Shown piece by piece: positions 2,798 through 17,869 of a stretch of DNA of 64,000 nucleotides (positions are counted from its first letter, which is position 1; every line of letters starts with the position of its first letter). A model generated the notes under the pieces. It saw only the letters and a program-made list of their open reading frames with translations, was not told the DNA's origin and made no database searches. The stretch is from positions 96,001-160,000 of the forward strand of contig CBDDBZ010000035.1 in NCBI GenBank assembly GCA_965225945.1, written 5' to 3'. Origin of the DNA: Alphaproteobacteria bacterium. Lineage in GTDB: Bacteria; Pseudomonadota; Alphaproteobacteria; GCA-2731375. A program made the position numbers and the translations under genes.

Positions 2798-4465
2798 CTA
2801 GCGCGTCTTGGCCGCGCGGGCGCGAATCAAGCCCTCGCGACGGTCGCGCGCGTCGAGGCCGGCGTCACGCTGCGGGGCCGGTCCCCAGCCGCCACCACCG
2901 CCCGAGTGGATCTCGAAAACGACGCCCGGTTCCACCACCACGCCTTCCTCCTTGGTCAGCAGGCGGCGGCGCCGTTTGCCGGGGCTGCGGATGGCGTAAT
3001 CGTGCGGCCGGCCGTCCTCGCCACCGTTCATGCCGCAGGCGCCGTGGCGGGCGCCGTCGCCGGCGGTATTGACCACGGCCGGTTTCGCCGTCTCCAGCCT
3101 GAGTTCCAGATCGACGCCGGCGCCGCCCCGGTACTTGCCGGCGCCACCGGAATCGGGGCGGAATTCGTGCCGGCCGAAATAAAGCGGATAGCGCGCCTCC
3201 GCCACCTCGATGCTGCCGAACTTCAAGCCGCCGGCGGAATGCCATTCGCCGACCGCGTGCCAGCCGTCGCCGCCGGCCGACGCCCCACCCCCCGGGCGGG
3301 CATGGAAGAGGTGCCAGATGAACTGCTTGCCGGTTCTCGGATCCTCACCCGAGATGGCGATCCGGAAGCGCCGGCCCCAGCCGGCCATGGCCCGCTCGGG
3401 ACAGGCCTGGGCCAGCGCCTTGACGATCGCCTCGATGATCTCCTGCGCGCAGTGCGAGGTGCACAGCGTCACCGGCGCCCCCGGCGCGGCCCAGACCACC
3501 GTGCCCTCCCGCGCTTTGACGGTGACGGCGCGCAACATGCCGTCGTTCTTCGCCACCTCCGGGTCCACCATGTAGGCGATCGCCATGGCCACGGCGGAGC
3601 GCATGTTGGCGTAACTCGAGTTGATGAAGCTGGTGGTCTGGGGATCGGAGCCCTCGAGATCGATCACCAATTCGGAGCCCCTTACCGTGACCTCGGCGCG
3701 GACGGTGATGTCCTCGTTGCCGCGGCCGTCGTCGTCCAGCATCGCGCTCCCGTGGTAGGTGCCGTCGGCCCAAGTCGCGAAGATGGCGCGGGCCTGGCGC
3801 TCGGCCGCGTCCATGATCCGTTCCCCGGCCGCCAGCACGACCTCGGGCCCATATTCCGCCATCAGGGCGCGGACCCGCCGCTCGCCGATATGGACCGAGC
3901 CGATCATGGCGAAGAGATCGCCCTTGAAGTCGCTCGGATGGCGGACGTTGGCGGACAGCATCTCCAACACGTCCTCGCGCAAGACCCCCTGGTCGTGCAG
4001 TTTCAAGGGCGGAATTCTCAGCCCCTCGTGCCAGATCTCCGTCGCGTTCGCGTTGTAGGCGCCGTGGGTGGCGCCGCCGATATCGCTCTGATGTGCCCGG
4101 TTGAGCGACCAGAAGGCCAACTGCCCATCGGCGAAGACGGGGACCACGGCGGTGATGTCGGGCAGGTGGCTGCCACCGTAACAGGGATCGTTCAGCAGGT
4201 AGACGTCGCCCGGCCGGGCCTGGGCGGCGAAGACCTCGGCGACGCTGCGGGCGGCCCAGGGCATGGCGCCGACATGCACGGGGATGTGCTCCGCCTGGGC
4301 CACCAGGTCGCCCTCGGCGGTACAGAGCGCGGCTGAAAAGTCGCGGCTGGAGTTCAGGATCTGGGAATAGGAGGTGCGCAGCATCGCCTCCCCCATCTCT
4401 TCCACGATGGCCGTCAAGCGGTGCTGCATCACCGAGACGGTGATGGGGTCGACGTCGATGGTCAT
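2798..4465 (-). CDS. Hydantoinase B/5-oxoprolinase subunit B family
   Basis: Start reassigned to ATG at 4465 (MTIDVDPITVSV). Motifs EMG..MLRTSYS, NDPCYGGSHLPD, HQSDIGG, EGLRIPP, DSGGAGKYRGG. Confidence 0.92.
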   Translation of the reverse strand: MTIDVDPITVSVMQHRLTAIVEEMGEAMLRTSYSQILNSSRDFSAALCTAEGDLVAQAEHIPVHVGAMPWAARSVAEVFAAQARPGDVYLLNDPCYGGSHLPDITAVVPVFADGQLAFWSLNRAHQSDIGGATHGAYNANATEIWHEGLRIPPLKLHDQGVLREDVLEMLSANVRHPSDFKGDLFAMIGSVHIGERRVRALMAEYGPEVVLAAGERIMDAAERQARAIFATWADGTYHGSAMLDDDGRGNEDITVRAEVTVRGSELVIDLEGSDPQTTSFINSSYANMRSAVAMAIAYMVDPEVAKNDGMLRAVTVKAREGTVVWAAPGAPVTLCTSHCAQEIIEAIVKALAQACPERAMAGWGRRFRIAISGEDPRTGKQFIWHLFHARPGGGASAGGDGWHAVGEWHSAGGLKFGSIEVAEARYPLYFGRHEFRPDSGGAGKYRGGAGVDLELRLETAKPAVVNTAGDGARHGACGMNGGEDGRPHDYAIRSPGKRRRRLLTKEEGVVVEPGVVFEIHSGGGGGWGPAPQRDAGLDARDRREGLIRARAAKTR

Positions 4466-4592
4466 GGCCGTCCTCGCGCGGGTTTTGGCTGGGCGAGGAT
4501 AGCCCGCATCCGACGGCGCACAAGGGGCGGGGATGGCTTGCCCTCCTGGATGGTCGTAAGCTCGCGACCGGCGCGGGCGGGGAAAGCGAGGC

Positions 4593-11476: not shown

Positions 11477-12763
11477 TCAAGCCCAGGCGGCGACCCTCGG
11501 CGACGGCAGGATGGTGCCCGAAACCTCGCCGAAGCCGACCCGATGGCCCTCGCCCTGGCACCAGCCGGTGATGGTCACCGTGTCGCCGTCCTCCAGGAAC
11601 GTCCGCTCGCCACCACCCTCGAGGCGGAGCGGCGCCTGGCCGTTTCGCGTCAACTCCAGCAGGCTACCGAGGGAGTCCGGATCCGGCCCGCTGATGGTCC
11701 CGGAGCCCAGCAGATCACCCGGCGCCATGGCGCAGCCGCCGACCGCGTGGTGCGCGAGCTGCTGCGCGCCCGACCAATACATATGGCGGAAGTTGGTGCG
11801 GCAGATCACGCTTCCGCGCGATGCACCGGCCGGGCGAAGCGTGGTCTCCAGGTGGACGTCGAGGCCTCGTGGCTCCCCCTGGCGGAGGTAGGGCAGCGGT
11901 GGCGGTGCCTGCTCCGGGCCGGCCACGCGGAACGGCGCCAGCGCCTCAGCCGTCACCACCCAGGGCGAGATCGAGGTGGCGAAGACCTTGGACTGGAACG
12001 GCCCCAACGGCACGTATTCCCAGGTTTGAATATCGCGCGCGCTCCAATCGTTCAGCAGCACGTAGCCGAAGATCATCGCCTCGGCCTCGCCGAGGGTCAG
12101 CGGCCGGCCCATCGCGTTGCCGGTGCCGACCACGGCGCCCATCTCCAGCTCGATGTCGAGCTTGGCGCATGGCCCGAAGATCGGTGCCTCGGCCTCGGGT
12201 GGCTTGCTCTGGCCGAGCGGGCGGTGGATCGCGGTGCCGCTCGCGACGACGGTGCTGGCCCGGCCGTTGTAGCCGATCGGCAGATGCAGCCAGTTGGCGG
12301 GAAGCGCGTTCTCGGGCCCGCGAAACATCCGGCCGACGTTGCTGGCGTGCTCCTTGGAGGCATAGAAATCGGTGTAGCCGCCGACCTCGATCGGCAGGCG
12401 CAACCGCGCCTCGGGCGTCGGGACGAGCGCCCGGCCGCGCAGCGACTCGTCGTCCCGCAGGCGGTCGTTGTCGCAATCGAGCAGGTCCGCGACCGTGGCG
12501 CGGACCGAGGCCCAGACATGCGCGCCCCGGGCCATGAAGGCGTTGAGGCTGGCGCCCTCGAAGACCGCCTCGCCCGCGTCCACCAGGCCGGCCCGTTCCA
12601 ACACCGCGAGGTCGAGAATTTGCTCGCCGATGGCGATGCCGACGCGTGGCCCCGGCGCCGCCACCGTCTCGAAGACGCCAAGGGGAAGGTTCTGGATCGG
12701 AAAATGGCCTTCCGCGTCGTCGGCGCCGGCGACCAAACTCCGCCGTTCGGCGCCGATGCTCAC
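11477..12763 (-). CDS. fahA: Fumarylacetoacetase
   Basis: HFPIQNLPLGVF, YTDFYASKEHA.NVG, PIGYNGRAS, LDIELEMG, LLNDWSARDIQ.WEYVPLGPF, GDLLGSGTISG. GTG start overlaps the hmgA stop. Confidence 0.95.
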   Translation of the reverse strand: MSIGAERRSLVAGADDAEGHFPIQNLPLGVFETVAAPGPRVGIAIGEQILDLAVLERAGLVDAGEAVFEGASLNAFMARGAHVWASVRATVADLLDCDNDRLRDDESLRGRALVPTPEARLRLPIEVGGYTDFYASKEHASNVGRMFRGPENALPANWLHLPIGYNGRASTVVASGTAIHRPLGQSKPPEAEAPIFGPCAKLDIELEMGAVVGTGNAMGRPLTLGEAEAMIFGYVLLNDWSARDIQTWEYVPLGPFQSKVFATSISPWVVTAEALAPFRVAGPEQAPPPLPYLRQGEPRGLDVHLETTLRPAGASRGSVICRTNFRHMYWSGAQQLAHHAVGGCAMAPGDLLGSGTISGPDPDSLGSLLELTRNGQAPLRLEGGGERTFLEDGDTVTITGWCQGEGHRVGFGEVSGTILPSPRVAAWA

Positions 12764-13902
12764 TCCGCCGCGGCCTTCCAGCTGTCGACATAGGCCTCGT
12801 TCTCGACGCCCGGGGGAAGCTCGCCCAAATCCAAGGCGTCGCGGGTGTCGATCATGACGGCGTATTCGTCGCTCACCGGCTTCGGCTGGGTGAACATGTT
12901 GCGGAGCGCCTTGGGATGCGGTCCGTGGGTGAAGCCGCAAGGATGGAAGGTCATCATCCCGGCCTCGATGCCGTCGCGAGAGAAGAAGTCGCCGGCGTGA
13001 TAGAACAACACCTCGTCATAGTCGTGATTGTCGTGGAAGAACGGCACCTTGAGCGCGCCCGGATCACTCTCGAAGGGGCGGGGTGCAAAGGTGCAGACGA
13101 CGAAGCGGTCGGCCATGAACGTGGTATGGGCCGAGGGCGGCAGGTGGTAGCGGTGGCTCGTCAACGGCCGGATATCACGAACATTGAGGCGGACCGGCGA
13201 GAGATCGCCCTTCCAACCCACCGCGTCGAGCGGATTGAAGGGGAAGGTGACGGTGCTGACGGCGTCGCGCCGCTTGATCCGGATCCGCCATTCTTCGTCG
13301 GCCGCCTTCCCGTCGCGCTGCGCCCGGAAGGCCTCGTCCAGCGCCGGACGCGCCAGGGTCGCGGGATCGAAGATCGCGTGCGCCCCCACCAGCCCCCTGT
13401 CGGGCAGGCCGTAGCTCGCATTGGTCGCCTCGATCATCAGCGCGCTCAGCGGCGAGGTGCATTCGAGCCGCCACATCGTCGCCCGGGGCAGCATGACGTA
13501 GTCGCCCACCTCGAGCGCGAGATGGCCGAAATCGCAAAACAAATCGGCCGCGCCCTGGTGGATGAACAGCAGATCGTCGCCGTCGCCGTTCCGGGCCAGG
13601 TGGTCCATCCGCTCCGGCGCGCGCCAGAAGCGGATTTTGCAATGGGCGTTGTGGAGCACGGTGGGCGCGTCCCAGGGCGAGGCTTCGATGCGGTTCAGCG
13701 CGCATAGATCGAAGGCCCGGGGTCGAAGCGGCCCCTCCCAATCGATCCAGCCGGTCGGCGGGTTGCGGTGATAGATATGCGCCGCCGGGCCGAAGAATCC
13801 GTTCTTGCTGATTTCCCTCTCGTAGGTGCCCTCGGGCAAATCGGCATGGGCCTGGCGGGTCGCCTCGCCCTCGACATGATGGATGGCAATGGGGTTCTTC
13901 AT
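12760..13902 (-). CDS. hmgA: Homogentisate 1,2-dioxygenase
   Basis: RQAHADLPEGTYERE, RNGDGDDLLFIHQG, HRYHLPPSAH, PFFHDNHDYDEVLFYH, HPCGFTHGPHP, AVMIDTR. Confidence 0.93.
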   Translation of the reverse strand: MKNPIAIHHVEGEATRQAHADLPEGTYEREISKNGFFGPAAHIYHRNPPTGWIDWEGPLRPRAFDLCALNRIEASPWDAPTVLHNAHCKIRFWRAPERMDHLARNGDGDDLLFIHQGAADLFCDFGHLALEVGDYVMLPRATMWRLECTSPLSALMIEATNASYGLPDRGLVGAHAIFDPATLARPALDEAFRAQRDGKAADEEWRIRIKRRDAVSTVTFPFNPLDAVGWKGDLSPVRLNVRDIRPLTSHRYHLPPSAHTTFMADRFVVCTFAPRPFESDPGALKVPFFHDNHDYDEVLFYHAGDFFSRDGIEAGMMTFHPCGFTHGPHPKALRNMFTQPKPVSDEYAVMIDTRDALDLGELPPGVENEAYVDSWKAAAE

Positions 13903-13994
13903 CGTCGCTCTCCCGAAGTCGGCCGCGCCGTGCTTATGGTAGCATGCTCGGATCGTCTCGAGGCGACCCGCCGGACCCCTCGACTCAGGCTCCG

Positions 13995-15479
13995 TCAGTC
14001 CCTCCGGTCGCCGACGGCGCCGCGGTCGATCTGGTCGCGCTCGATCGATTCGAACAGTGCCTTGAAGTTACCCTCGCCGAAACCCTCGTCGCCCTTGCGC
14101 TGGATGAACTCGAAGAACACCGGCCCCAGCAGGGTCTGGGAGAAGATCTGCAGCAGCAGCCGGACGTCGCCCCCCATGGTGGTGCCGTCGAGCAGGATGC
14201 CGCGCGATTTCAAGCCCGCCACCGGTTCGCCGTGGCCGGGCAGGCGCTGCTCCAGCATGGCGTAGTAGGCATCGGACGGCGCCGGCATGAAGTCCAAGCC
14301 CGCCGAGCGCAACCTGTCGACGGTCGCCGGCAGGTCCTCGCAAGAAAGCGCGATGTGCTGAATGCCCTCGCCGTTGAAGGCCAGAAGAAACTCCTCGATC
14401 TGCCCCCCGCCGGCCCCAGATTCCTCGTTCAGGGGAATGCGGATCTTGCCGTCGGGCGCGGTGAGTGCTTTGCTGGTCAGGCCGGTGTATTCGCCCGAGA
14501 TGTCGAAATGGCGCAGTTCGCGGAAACCGAACAGATGCTCGTAGAAGCCCGCCCAATGCGCCATGCGGCCGCGATAGACATTGTGGGTCAGGTGATCGAT
14601 GAGCTTCAGGCCGTGCCCAACGGGGCGGCGCTCGGCCCCCTCGAGCCAACGAAAATCGATGTCGTAGATCGACGCGCCGTCCTCGAAGCGGTCGATCAGA
14701 TAGATCGACGCCCCGCCGATGCCCCGAATTGCCGGCAGCTTCAACTCCATGGGCCCGGTCGGAATGTCGATCGGTTGCGCGCCGAGCTCGATCGCCCGGG
14801 CGTGGGCGAGGTGCGAATCACCGACCCGGAAGGCCAGGCCACAGGCCGAAGGTCCGTGCTCGTCGGCGAAATAGGCGGCGAGCGACCGTGGTGCCTTGTT
14901 GACGATGAAGTTGATCCCGCCCTGACGCCAAAGATCGACCTCCTTCGAGCGATGGCGTGCGACCTTGGCAAAACCGAGCGTCGTGAAGGCTTGCTCGAGA
15001 AGTTCCGGGTTCGGTGCCGCGAACTCGACGAACTCGAAGCCCTCGAGCCCCATCGGGTTGTCCACCGTCGGCGCGGGCCGCGCGCCGACGGCGGAACTCG
15101 AGACGCTCGCCACCCCGGCTTCCGCCGCGTCGGTTTCCAGATCGATGAAATGCACGCCGAACTGATTGGCGGCCCGGTAGGCGACCTCGCACCACCTCGG
15201 TCCACTTTGGCCGAAATCGAGCTCAAACCGGTCGGGCACCTCCGACACCGTTTCGAAAAACAACCTGGCGCCGCTCCGCGACAGGTTTCGTACGGTGCAG
15301 TCGATCACGCTCTGGCGATCGTTGTAGATCACCTTGGCGGCAAGCAGCGTGCGTCGGCGACGGTCCGCCAACATTCGGCGCTCGTCGCCGCCGCGCTGCT
15401 CCGTCTCGGTCGGCGCCTCGACGATACGCCGCTCCTCACGGGCTCTGCGTTCCTCGGCTCGCCGACGTTTCTCGATCAC
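13995..15479 (-). CDS. hppD: 4-hydroxyphenylpyruvate dioxygenase with an N-terminal PilZ domain
   Basis: C-terminal ~355 aa is HppD ([70 protein letters not shown]). The in-frame N-terminal part is a PilZ domain ([10 protein letters not shown]...[14 protein letters not shown]...FGVHF). Likely start is GTG at 15479, after GGAGCGAGG. Confidence 0.88.
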
Positions 15480-15764
15480 GCCTCGCTCCCTATCTCGCTC
15501 TCGGCGTCGGCTCGTCCCGGCATTCGACGATATCCGAGCACCACGCGCGTTTCGCGACCGGTGCGCCTCGCCAAGCGCCATATTCGATTGTTGTTACGAA
15601 ATCCAACAATTCGAGCATGGCGATAACGGAATAGACTCACGGCGTAACCATATAATATTTGTGCCTATTAAGGAACCCGCGCTCAGACGATTTCATTGGT
15701 TTTGAAATCGATATCAAGACATGTTGAAAGAATAGAGTCGCCGACACTTCAATTCGTTTTGCCG

Positions 15765-15780
15765 TTAAGGTGTCATTAAC
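15765..15780 (+). promoter_or_regulatory. CtrA binding box (TTAA-N7-TTAAC)
   Basis: TTAA-GGTGTCA-TTAAC exactly matches the alphaproteobacterial CtrA consensus and lies in an AT-rich divergent intergenic region. Confidence 0.65.
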
Positions 15781-15798
15781 CCATCAAGTGGCGGGAGC

Positions 15799-16335
15799 GT
15801 GGTCCGGACCACGGGGCAGCAAGCGTGGGAGACGAACACAGATGACGGCGATCAAGGGTTTTGCGATAGGCGCGATCGCAATGGGAACCATGTCGACGGC
15901 GGCAAGCTGAACGGCGCCAATGGTCATGGGCTGCATCACGGCACCGGCGGCAATGGCGTCGCGATGCCACCGACGCATCTGGTTTCGACGAACGACCGCT
16001 TGGAAAACCACCGGGATCCCAGCCGCCCACGACTGATCGACTCGATTGTCGATACCCGGCAGGCGCCGGTCGAGCGGACACCGCCACGGGCGTTGCGCCC
16101 GAGTCCCCGGCGCTGGACGGTAACCGGCGGCGCGGGCGATGCCGAGCAGAATCTCGACCGGCAGGCGACGGACGACCCGATCAAGCTGGTGCAAAAGCTC
16201 AATCAGGCGATGAACGCGGCGGATCGGATCGGCCTTGTCGTCAAACCGAACATCTCGACCGCGACGTCGCAGTTCGGTGGCACAGGCTCGGCCGGCCACA
16301 TGGCGAGCATCAAGGTCTCTCGCAAGCTCTGCTAG
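15799..16335 (+). CDS. Hypothetical protein
   Basis: 178-aa ORF just downstream of the CtrA box. The C-terminal part looks protein-like (DDPIKLVQKLNQAMNAADRIGLVVKP). Start uncertain; no family recognised. Confidence 0.45.
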   Translation: MVRTTGQQAWETNTDDGDQGFCDRRDRNGNHVDGGKLNGANGHGLHHGTGGNGVAMPPTHLVSTNDRLENHRDPSRPRLIDSIVDTRQAPVERTPPRALRPSPRRWTVTGGAGDAEQNLDRQATDDPIKLVQKLNQAMNAADRIGLVVKPNISTATSQFGGTGSAGHMASIKVSRKLC

Positions 16336-16550
16336 AGCGTGCGACGGCCCTCACGAACAATTCTCCGCGCGGTCGCCCGCGACGGGGCGCGAGCGGGCAA
16401 ATGCCCGCTTGGCTTCGGTGCGCGCGTCTACAGGGTGGACGGTAATCGGCCTTGTCGTCAAACCGAACATCTCGACCGCGACGTCGCAGTTCGGTGGCAC
16501 AGGCTCGGCCGGCCACATGGCGAGCATCAAGGTCTCTCGCAAGCTCTGCT
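16228..16550. repeat. 106-bp perfect direct repeat (16228-16333 and 16445-16550)
   Basis: ATCGGCCTTGTCGTCAAACCG...CGCAAGCTCTGCT occurs twice, offset by 217 bp. Confidence 0.95.
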
Positions 16551-16597
16551 CGGGGGAGCGGCGCGGTCGGGACATCCGTCGATGGTATCACAAGGAG

Positions 16598-17869
16598 CTA
16601 CAGGATATCCGCCTTGGCGTACCAGGGCTCCGGGACCAAACTTTCGATCCCCAGCCATTCCGCTAGTTCGCGCGCCATGGTGGGACCACTACGGTCGCGC
16701 TCGGTGTCGATTTCCACGGCGACCGTCATGCCGGCGCGCAGCTTCGGCTGCCCTTCGGCCTGCTCCAGCTTGATCCTGACCGGCACCCGCTGCACCACCT
16801 TGACCCAGTTGCCCGAGGCGTTCTGCGGCGGCAGGAGAGAGAACTCGGCGCCGGTCGCGGGCGCGATGCTGTCGACCGTGCCGGTCCAGGTGACGTCGGG
16901 ATAGGAATCGACGACGAAATTGACCTTTTGGCCGATCACGACGTGCGTGAGCTGGGTTTCCTTCAGGTTCGCCTCGACCCAGGGCCGGTCGACCTGCACC
17001 AGCGAGAAGAGCGCATCTCCCTCTTCCACATACTCGCCCGCCTGCAGTTTGATGTTGGAGACGATGCCGTCGGCCGGCGCCATCACGTTGGTGCGATCGA
17101 AGTCGAGCTCGGCCCGATCCAGGGCGGCCAGCGCGCGCAGGAACTTCGGGTGATCCCCTACCTTGACCTTGGCGTTGCCGCCGAGCTCGGCTAACAGCAT
17201 GCGATTGCGCTCGCGCACCGTGTCGACCTCGCGCTTGGCCATCTCGGACAGATGCTCGGCCTGGTCGAGCTTGACGTTGGTGCCGACGCCGCGCCGGGTC
17301 AGGGTCTGCTGGCGCTTGTGCTCGGCGTCGAGATAGCGGACTCGTTCCTGCAATTGGTCGACCTGTCGGGCACCCGCGCGAAAGGCCGCCCGCATCGACT
17401 CGATCTCCGCGCGCACGCGATCGAGTTCCGCCTTTGCCTCCTGGATCTCGATCTCGAAGGGGCGGGGATCGATGCGGAACAGCACCTGTCCCCCGTTGAC
17501 CTGTTCGTTCTCGCGCACGTCGATGTCGATGATGCGGCCCCGCACATCGGTGCTGATGGCGATGACGTCGGCCTTCACATAGGCGTTTTCCGTCGTCACC
17601 CAACGCATGCTCTCGCCCCAGATCAGGGCGCCGTAGAACGCCGCCCAGAGCGGCAGGAGCACCATCAACACGAGGCGAATCAGCGGCCGAAAGAAGCGCA
17701 GGGTATGGCGCATCTTGTGCCGCGACCGGCTGGCCGTCGGTCCCTCGGAACGCGCCGGCGCGTCCGCGTCGGCCGCGAATTCCGGCGCGACCGGCTCGGC
17801 CGCGCTGTCCTGGTCGTCGTCCACCACCGCGACCGGAGCATCGCTCTTCCTCGCGGCCGGATCAGCCAT
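16598..17869 (-). CDS. HlyD/EmrA-family membrane fusion protein
   Basis: TM anchor, TTENAYVKAD, ANLKETQL, IAPATGAEFSLLPPQNASGNWVKVVQRVPVRI, LRAGMTV. Confidence 0.92.
   Translation of the reverse strand: MADPAARKSDAPVAVVDDDQDSAAEPVAPEFAADADAPARSEGPTASRSRHKMRHTLRFFRPLIRLVLMVLLPLWAAFYGALIWGESMRWVTTENAYVKADVIAISTDVRGRIIDIDVRENEQVNGGQVLFRIDPRPFEIEIQEAKAELDRVRAEIESMRAAFRAGARQVDQLQERVRYLDAEHKRQQTLTRRGVGTNVKLDQAEHLSEMAKREVDTVRERNRMLLAELGGNAKVKVGDHPKFLRALAALDRAELDFDRTNVMAPADGIVSNIKLQAGEYVEEGDALFSLVQVDRPWVEANLKETQLTHVVIGQKVNFVVDSYPDVTWTGTVDSIAPATGAEFSLLPPQNASGNWVKVVQRVPVRIKLEQAEGQPKLRAGMTVAVEIDTERDRSGPTMARELAEWLGIESLVPEPWYAKADIL

Follow-up and report, generated by a model that had tools for sequence, protein, structure and literature searches.

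Can a receptor domain for cyclic di-GMP (c-di-GMP) be built directly into an enzyme of aromatic amino-acid catabolism? The question is raised by a minus-strand gene in a 64,000-nt stretch of alphaproteobacterial DNA (assembly GCA_965225945.1, contig CBDDBZ010000035.1, positions 96,001 to 160,000; hereafter the window), in which a PilZ domain is joined in frame to 4-hydroxyphenylpyruvate dioxygenase (HppD). The original prediction had read from the letters of the window a single open reading frame (ORF) with an intact N-x-S-x-x-G motif in its PilZ domain, a low-complexity linker and a complete HppD. The ORF (13995..15581, minus strand; 528 aa from the ATG at 15581, stop codon at 13995-13997) is indeed uninterrupted, both domains score over their family cut-offs, the linker is present (Table 1), and the same fusion was found in three of the three genomes of the genus. 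Unless stated otherwise, residue numbers given below refer to the 528-aa frame. We propose that in this one polypeptide the binding of a cyclic dinucleotide would tune the formation of homogentisate, a proposal that we hold to be about evenly poised.

By profile score and fold, the protein belongs to both the PilZ and the HppD families, while lacking the canonical RxxxR motif of the former. The HppD part matched the NCBIfam profile TIGR01263 (4HPPD) with 375.9 bits against a cut-off of 277, covering profile positions 2-352 of 353, and Pfam placed Glyoxalase_5 (HPPD N-terminal; 205.9 bits) at residues 174-310 and Glyoxalase at residues 328-443. Residues 173-523 matched PDB 1CJX, presumably the HPPD of Pseudomonas fluorescens, with an E-value of 3e-169. 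The His of IDHLTHN (14580-14600), the His of GIQHIA (14349-14366) and the Glu of FFEFIQ (14100-14117), which we take to be the iron ligands of a two-His-one-Glu site, are invariant among 11 HppD sequences. Judged from its sequence, the domain is catalytically complete, in line with the complete HppD of the original prediction. The fused gene encodes the sole HppD over the cut-off in the genome (96.5% complete), so that any control exerted on it would act on all HppD in the cell. Among the public versions of the protein, P0002 (494 aa, a cluster representative) has Lys in place of the His of IDHLTHN in the window's protein, and P0164 has Arg for Leu two residues before that position; these substitutions could be sequencing errors or inactive alleles.

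The N-terminal module was recognised by PF07238 (Pfam) at residues 77-152 with 25.7 bits (cut-off 22.5; E-value 1.5e-5), and the same domain scored 29 bits in a six-frame search of the genome. In the AlphaFold2 (AF2) model, the PilZ core consists of a barrel of six strands (E46-52, 57-64, 70-75, 84-88, 94-103 and 106-111, in the numbering of the model) and a following helix (H114-121), with block means of 79-96 for the predicted local distance difference test (pLDDT). The first 25 matches listed by Foldseek, ahead of the first non-PilZ entry, were all PilZ domains (probability 1.00), and the top ones, many of them solved with c-di-GMP, were BcsA, VCA0042, YcgR, Alg44, MapZ, PA0012 and PlzA. 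The full-length model contains two folded domains separated by a linker with pLDDT <50; its mean pLDDT ranges from 53 to 73 across five models and it is uninformative on contacts between the domains. As modelled, the protein is a receptor module tethered to HppD via a disordered linker of ~20 residues.

The first of the two c-di-GMP-binding motifs of the PilZ module, NLSRSG (N99 to G104), is intact. In alignment numbering, S67 and G70 are invariant and L66 is at least 90% conserved among 13 homologs, whereas among 116 sequences G70 never varies and the conservation of S67 is 90% or more. The second motif is found in a displaced form. The consensus of the PilZ subfamily (116 sequences) is ERRxxxRxRTL, the RxxxR of which is aligned by the profile to RKEPR of VCA0042. 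In the fusion, the pair R68/R69 lies two residues upstream of the register of the first Arg, which gives a spacing of RR-x5-R, or x4 to the nearest Arg; the motif had been described as R-x4-R rather than an exact RxxxR, which is correct when R74 is taken for the last Arg. P0169, a member of the 90% cluster of the protein from genome G001, reads ERRRSADRRRTL and has the exact canonical RRxxxR spacing, indicating that close relatives differ in this spacing but retain the Arg cluster. All six proteins compared, three fused and three stand-alone, share the Arg segment E-RR-x3-D-RRR, which is disordered in the AF2 model. Since NLSxxG is intact, the Arg pair displaced and one close ortholog canonical, the binding of c-di-GMP by the fusion PilZ is plausible from its sequence. 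Matches over the cut-offs to c-di-GMP signalling domains are present in the genome, with 12 for PilZ (the fusion and 11 others) and 15 for GGDEF. Co-folding of the HppD domain with the PilZ fragment and two c-di-GMP molecules gave a score of 0.00, which covers the protein partners only and was counted neither way. The N-terminal tail is a predicted helix (pLDDT 87, then 72); its RR pairs (fragment residues R5-6, R11-12, R17-18, R29, R34-35 and R40-42) are invariant in six sequences (the stand-alone proteins P0006, P0007 and P0014 and the three fused ones), and the Arg motif resembles the last unit of the (D/E)RR repeat of ~6 residues that runs through the tail.

A working model for the fusion can be drawn as follows. 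The Arg cluster and NLSxxG of the PilZ module would together bind a cyclic dinucleotide, c-di-GMP being the likeliest, and binding would order the Arg segment against the barrel. The ordered segment would in turn shift the seating of the barrel on the HppD domain or on the HppD oligomer, and the altered contact would raise or lower the formation of homogentisate, with a sign that is not readable from the sequence. The supply of homogentisate would then follow the c-di-GMP state of the cell, feeding catabolism through the downstream HmgA-like protein and FahA or, on accumulation, auto-oxidising to pyomelanin. The more specific statement that c-di-GMP or another cyclic dinucleotide, read by the off-register Arg motif, directly switches the only HppD of the cell is advanced tentatively, and we judge it somewhat doubtful on balance.

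Several observations weigh against this model. The Pfam score of the fusion PilZ is only 3 bits above the cut-off, and all Foldseek E-values are 1.2e-3 or weaker. RxxxR is absent in its canonical register, where L71 stands at the position of the first Arg and only the last Arg, R75, is present, and the Arg pair is displaced by two residues also in the representatives of G001 and G002 and in the three closest stand-alone homologs. Passages of a survey of PilZ domains state that those with lacking or disrupted motifs do not bind c-di-GMP and that binding can be lost within a single genus (10.1101/814665). The fusion is restricted to one genus in samples of the order, class and phylum, and in a public contig of 1959 nt the frame is shifted precisely at the PilZ-HppD junction. 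The product of this contig, P0005 (276 aa), has 99% identity over the PilZ part and runs out of frame directly behind DNP, with the HppD piece called separately as P0167 (251 aa); either the contig was wrongly assembled or it comes from a natural strain whose PilZ and HppD halves have been uncoupled.

The departure from the motif and the marginal Pfam score would also suit a module that no longer binds c-di-GMP and acts as a ligand-independent adaptor for oligomerisation, partner docking or localisation, as do the eponymous PilZ protein and further PilZ domains with degenerate motifs. The broken register at L71 and the loss of binding reported for motif-lacking domains, even within a genus, speak for such an adaptor, but NLSxxG is fully intact, the Arg segment is invariant in six sequences although disordered in the model, which is hard to explain without a ligand, and P0169 has the exact RRxxxR spacing. 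We consider an adaptor role unlikely, if still a serious contender to control by a ligand.

That the two halves belong together was examined across the genus and in public protein collections. Whole-genome searches found the fusion in frame and without stops in G000, G001 and G002, each of which contains this PilZ subtype once, always as the fused copy. A search of 5.8 billion proteins with residues 1-175, which considered 3425 candidates of 290-924 aa, gave three clusters (90% identity), each with PilZ and HppD Pfam domains. One piece of 251 aa and 13 different fused sequences (464-494 aa), none of which bears a name, make up these clusters. In Nei-Gojobori estimates on the three orthologs, between which dS is 0.7-1.3 overall, dN/dS was 0.14-0.20 for the PilZ core (dS 0.8-1.3) and 0.10-0.13 for HppD, with 0.61-0.81 for the linker and 0.45-0.76 for the Arg/Glu tail. 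The only length difference at the junction between the three species is a single in-frame indel of 9 nt, located in the linker. Purifying selection on the PilZ core in three species, together with the preserved frame of the sole junction indel, argues that the fusion is more than chance, and these sequence comparisons indicate that it is kept by selection and is under selection as a unit.

The start codon bears on whether the PilZ module is always part of the product. The original prediction placed the start at the GTG at 15479, in agreement with the public gene calls P0002 and P0163 (both 494 aa from this GTG), with the orthologs in G001 and G002, whose similarity starts at residue 32 of the 528-aa frame, and with the Shine-Dalgarno-like sequence GGGAGCGAGG, composed of GGGAG (15486-15490) and GAGG (15481-15484) immediately 5' of the GTG. 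No Shine-Dalgarno site was found before the ATG at 15581. Because the upstream 34 codons are not conserved and the public calls are 494 aa long, this GTG is almost certainly the true start. Translation could also, or mainly, begin at the internal Met of NPMG or at a nearby GTG, releasing free HppD, with the fusion made in minor amounts or under certain conditions. At the beginning of the HppD domain there are indeed a GTG (V173) and an ATG (M177) in frame, truncation there would cost only ~4-7 residues relative to unfused HppD, and the variant contig carries the halves out of frame. However, in all three species the internal ATG lacks a preceding GGAG-, GAGG- or AGGA-like site, as had been noted for the window, and the GTG is not conserved, the codon being GCC in G001 and CCG in G002. 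The unfused relatives start with MADLFENPMGL, 8 residues upstream of the Met of NPMG, which is a conserved internal residue in them, and the start codon that they use is absent in all three fused genes. With the frame and purifying selection on PilZ maintained in all three species as well, an internal start as the main source of HppD appears quite improbable.

The interval 13900-15750 was compared with contigs from four public runs (X1, X5, X10 and X12). A single 3487-nt contig of X1, which may be the source of the window, spans the whole interval with 0 differences. A check of the junction in sequence data had been proposed. Two further contigs, one of 1326 nt from X5, another study (14625-15750), and one of 639 nt from the metatranscriptome X10 (14889-15527), span it with 0 differences; the latter is no more than a hint of transcription, since an RNA library can contain DNA. 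X12, labelled as a sponge metagenome, gave six contigs, all with at least 99% likeness, one of which (15077-15429) extends some way into the linker. Over this interval, none of the four runs was listed with insertions or deletions relative to the window. Neither separate pilZ and hppD genes in relatives within the genus nor a misassembly, both raised as ways in which the fusion might prove false, was seen. An artefact, whether a misassembly or a newly lost stop codon merging two genes, is suggested by the short P0005/P0167 contig but is effectively refuted by junction-spanning contigs from different studies and an RNA library, 13 independent fused gene calls, retention of the fusion at dS 0.7-1.3 in two other species, and the lack of a stand-alone copy of this PilZ subtype in G000, G001 and G002, and it is extremely improbable.

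The distribution of the fusion was surveyed in three overlapping genome samples, in which a very divergent fused PilZ might escape alignment to the query. Within the order, 19 of the 33 genomes searched have an HppD-level match, and the fused ones are the three of the genus (g1), the matches in the other 16 beginning at residue 162 or later (at least 162). In even samples of the class and the phylum (401 genomes each), 115 and 138 genomes, respectively, have such a match and only G000 is fused, with the remaining 114 matches beginning at residue at least 146 and the remaining 137 at residue at least 140; the phylum tally includes G785 (flagged as unpublished), whose match begins at residue 172. 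Confinement to one genus implies that the fusion is not a widespread solution. Five long frames (547-717 aa) upstream of HppD in other genomes were rejected as shadow frames preceding a normal MPDL(W/F)DNP-type start, and the clusters obtained from the ESM Atlas were all of unfused HppD (score 0.76). A representative library contained 1916 PilZ relatives at E ≤0.001, but among the 150 listed the fused family is represented only by the frameshifted 276-aa variant; the library is unable to count fusions, because full-length fused proteins probably reside inside HppD clusters.

As to origin, a hidden Markov model (HMM) of the PilZ alignment was run over nine loci with unfused hppD (L004-L012) and detected PilZ at none of them within 1.5 kb of that gene, and a split ancestor with a neighbouring pilZ was thus not found. 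Scans for related loci with a six-sequence alignment recovered three distant PilZ loci in genome contigs, none of them fused to HppD and with the genus itself not recovered, and eight PilZ loci in metagenomes, the two closest of which, when examined, are not beside hppD. The PilZ module looks to have been recruited once to the 5' end of hppD, in the ancestor of the genus, as far as these comparisons of sequences reach. In family f1, the HppD of the fused genus shares 67-72% identity with that of genus g5 and only 56-57% with those of the sister genera g3, g6, g7 and g8, and it shares 73-76% with the HppDs of G208, G025 and G316, which belong to three other families in the class. This pattern points to either two lineages of HppD or a lateral transfer inside family f1.

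Table 1. Coordinates of the PilZ-HppD gene, its parts and adjacent features in the window.
Feature	Position	Strand	Remarks
PilZ-HppD fusion CDS	13995..15479	minus	494 aa + stop; GTG start 15479-15477; most likely CDS
In-frame upstream extension	15480..15581	minus	34 codons; probably untranslated leader; not conserved in G001/G002
Shine-Dalgarno-like GGGAGCGAGG	15481..15490	minus	just 5' of GTG start; read from sequence
Arg/Glu-rich N-terminal tail, residues 35-66	15384..15479	minus	(D/E)RR pairs ~6 residues apart
Arg motif, residues 67-77	15351..15383	minus	non-canonical form of PilZ RxxxR
PilZ domain, residues 77-152	15126..15353	minus	PF07238
NLSRSG, PilZ [D/N]hSxxG motif	15270..15287	minus	read from sequence
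Ala/Ser/Gly/Pro low-complexity linker, residues 153-172	15066..15125	minus	from model, dN/dS and indel
Complete HppD domain, residues 173-528	13998..15065	minus	TIGR01263 and PDB 1CJX match
HmgA-like dioxygenase, divergent	12760..13902	minus	380 aa; downstream of fusion, between hppD and fahA
Fumarylacetoacetase fahA	11477..12940	minus	TIGR01266, 555.1 bits vs 375.3; ORF as listed
AT-rich intergenic region, likely promoter region	15582..15798	.	G+C 0.42 vs 0.68 for the whole window

Downstream of the fusion, the original prediction had placed hmgA and fahA. The assignment of fahA holds by its TIGR01266 score, although its true start probably lies further in, as the family match begins at residue 77 of the listed ORF. 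The gene between them is not a canonical hmgA but a divergent HmgA-like one, whose product scored 73 bits with TIGR01015, far below the equivalog cut-off of 510.75, over profile positions 129-424 only. This protein exceeded the Pfam cut-off for HgmA_N (50 bits), fell short of that for HgmA_C (19.4 vs 21), and matched homogentisate dioxygenases in PDB with E-values of 1e-8 to 1e-9. It is encoded directly 3' of the fused hppD in G001 and G002 too, and no such gene was present in the available flanks of nine loci with unfused hppD. No canonical hmgA was found in the G000 genome, in which two maiA matches lie elsewhere. From its sequence, the 380-aa protein may represent an unrecognised type of homogentisate-cleaving dioxygenase.

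A scan of the region upstream of the fusion for sigma-70 promoter and terminator consensus sequences gave 0 sites. Beyond the AT-rich gap lie ORFs without a family, followed by an EmrA-like gene and a MarR-family gene; Pfam assigned no family to the ORFs at 15799-16332 and 16235-16663. A direct repeat of 119 nt (16228-16346 and 16445-16563; 96% identity, 217 nt from start to start) duplicates the 3' end of the plus-strand ORF 15799-16335.

PilZ domains are known from fusions through which polysaccharide synthases, secretion adaptors, motility brakes and other signalling domains are controlled. In searches of full-text literature for PilZ with HppD or homogentisate and for c-di-GMP with pyomelanin, judged from the search listings, only incidental co-mentions and no description of a PilZ-HppD fusion were found. 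The partners listed in the passages of the PilZ survey cited above are REC, GGDEF, EAL, HD-GYP, MCP, CheC, HlyD-type proteins and cellulose synthase, and the word 'dioxygenase' is absent from its text, the supplementary tables of which may list rare architectures (10.1101/814665). The kind of receptor fusion is known, but with HppD it has a new output domain. The present distribution of the fusion in one genus limits the claim for now. If the proposal is true, a second messenger of lifestyle would gate aromatic amino-acid catabolism and the output of homogentisate or pyomelanin at the level of the enzyme. This would be the first PilZ-controlled catabolic dioxygenase, and direct c-di-GMP control would extend to central aromatic metabolism and pigment formation. 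As a single polypeptide, the fusion would also be a compact system in which to study the regulation of an unrelated catalytic domain by a PilZ barrel, and its conserved off-register Arg motif, together with the canonical ortholog, provides a natural test of the tolerance of RxxxR loop spacing.

Four known systems can be compared with the fusion. P0155, assigned by Pfam as PilZ-PAS-GGDEF, has the PilZ subfamily of the fusion N-terminal to an enzyme, but its type of output is a c-di-GMP-making domain whereas that of the fusion is a metabolic enzyme; PilZ-GGDEF is a type of PilZ fusion described in passages of the survey (10.1101/814665). At locus L013 of Bradyrhizobium sp. LTSP885, a 544-aa ORF at 2947-4581 (plus strand) resembles P0155 in sequence and has the PilZ subfamily at its N-terminus. 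The stand-alone alphaproteobacterial-type PilZ proteins P0006, P0007 and P0014 (113-126 aa) share 48-50% identity with the fusion over the tail and the PilZ core, including its E-RR-x3-D-RRRR-TLL Arg segment and NLSxxG, but they end after the PilZ helix. The two of them that were examined in their contigs are not beside hppD, their neighbours being genes for an Iso_dh-family dehydrogenase and AlaRS, or for Meth_synt_2 and SDR proteins. The bacterial HPPDs of PDB 1CJX and 9QMF match residues 173-523 from end to end (E-values 3e-169 and 5e-174, respectively) and, unlike the fusion, are enzymes of 357-361 aa without an N-terminal regulatory domain. In BcsA, the binding of c-di-GMP to PilZ gates catalysis, and it is by analogy with this protein that we infer how PilZ may be coupled to HppD. 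Among the Foldseek matches, BcsA (PDB 9FP0, 4P00 and 4HG6) comes closest in structure to the modelled PilZ core of the fusion (E-value 1.2e-3), and in both proteins PilZ is covalently joined to the enzyme. In BcsA, however, PilZ is C-terminal and the enzyme is a membrane glycosyltransferase, whereas in the fusion an N-terminal PilZ with an off-register Arg motif precedes, across a disordered linker, a soluble Fe(II) dioxygenase of amino-acid catabolism.

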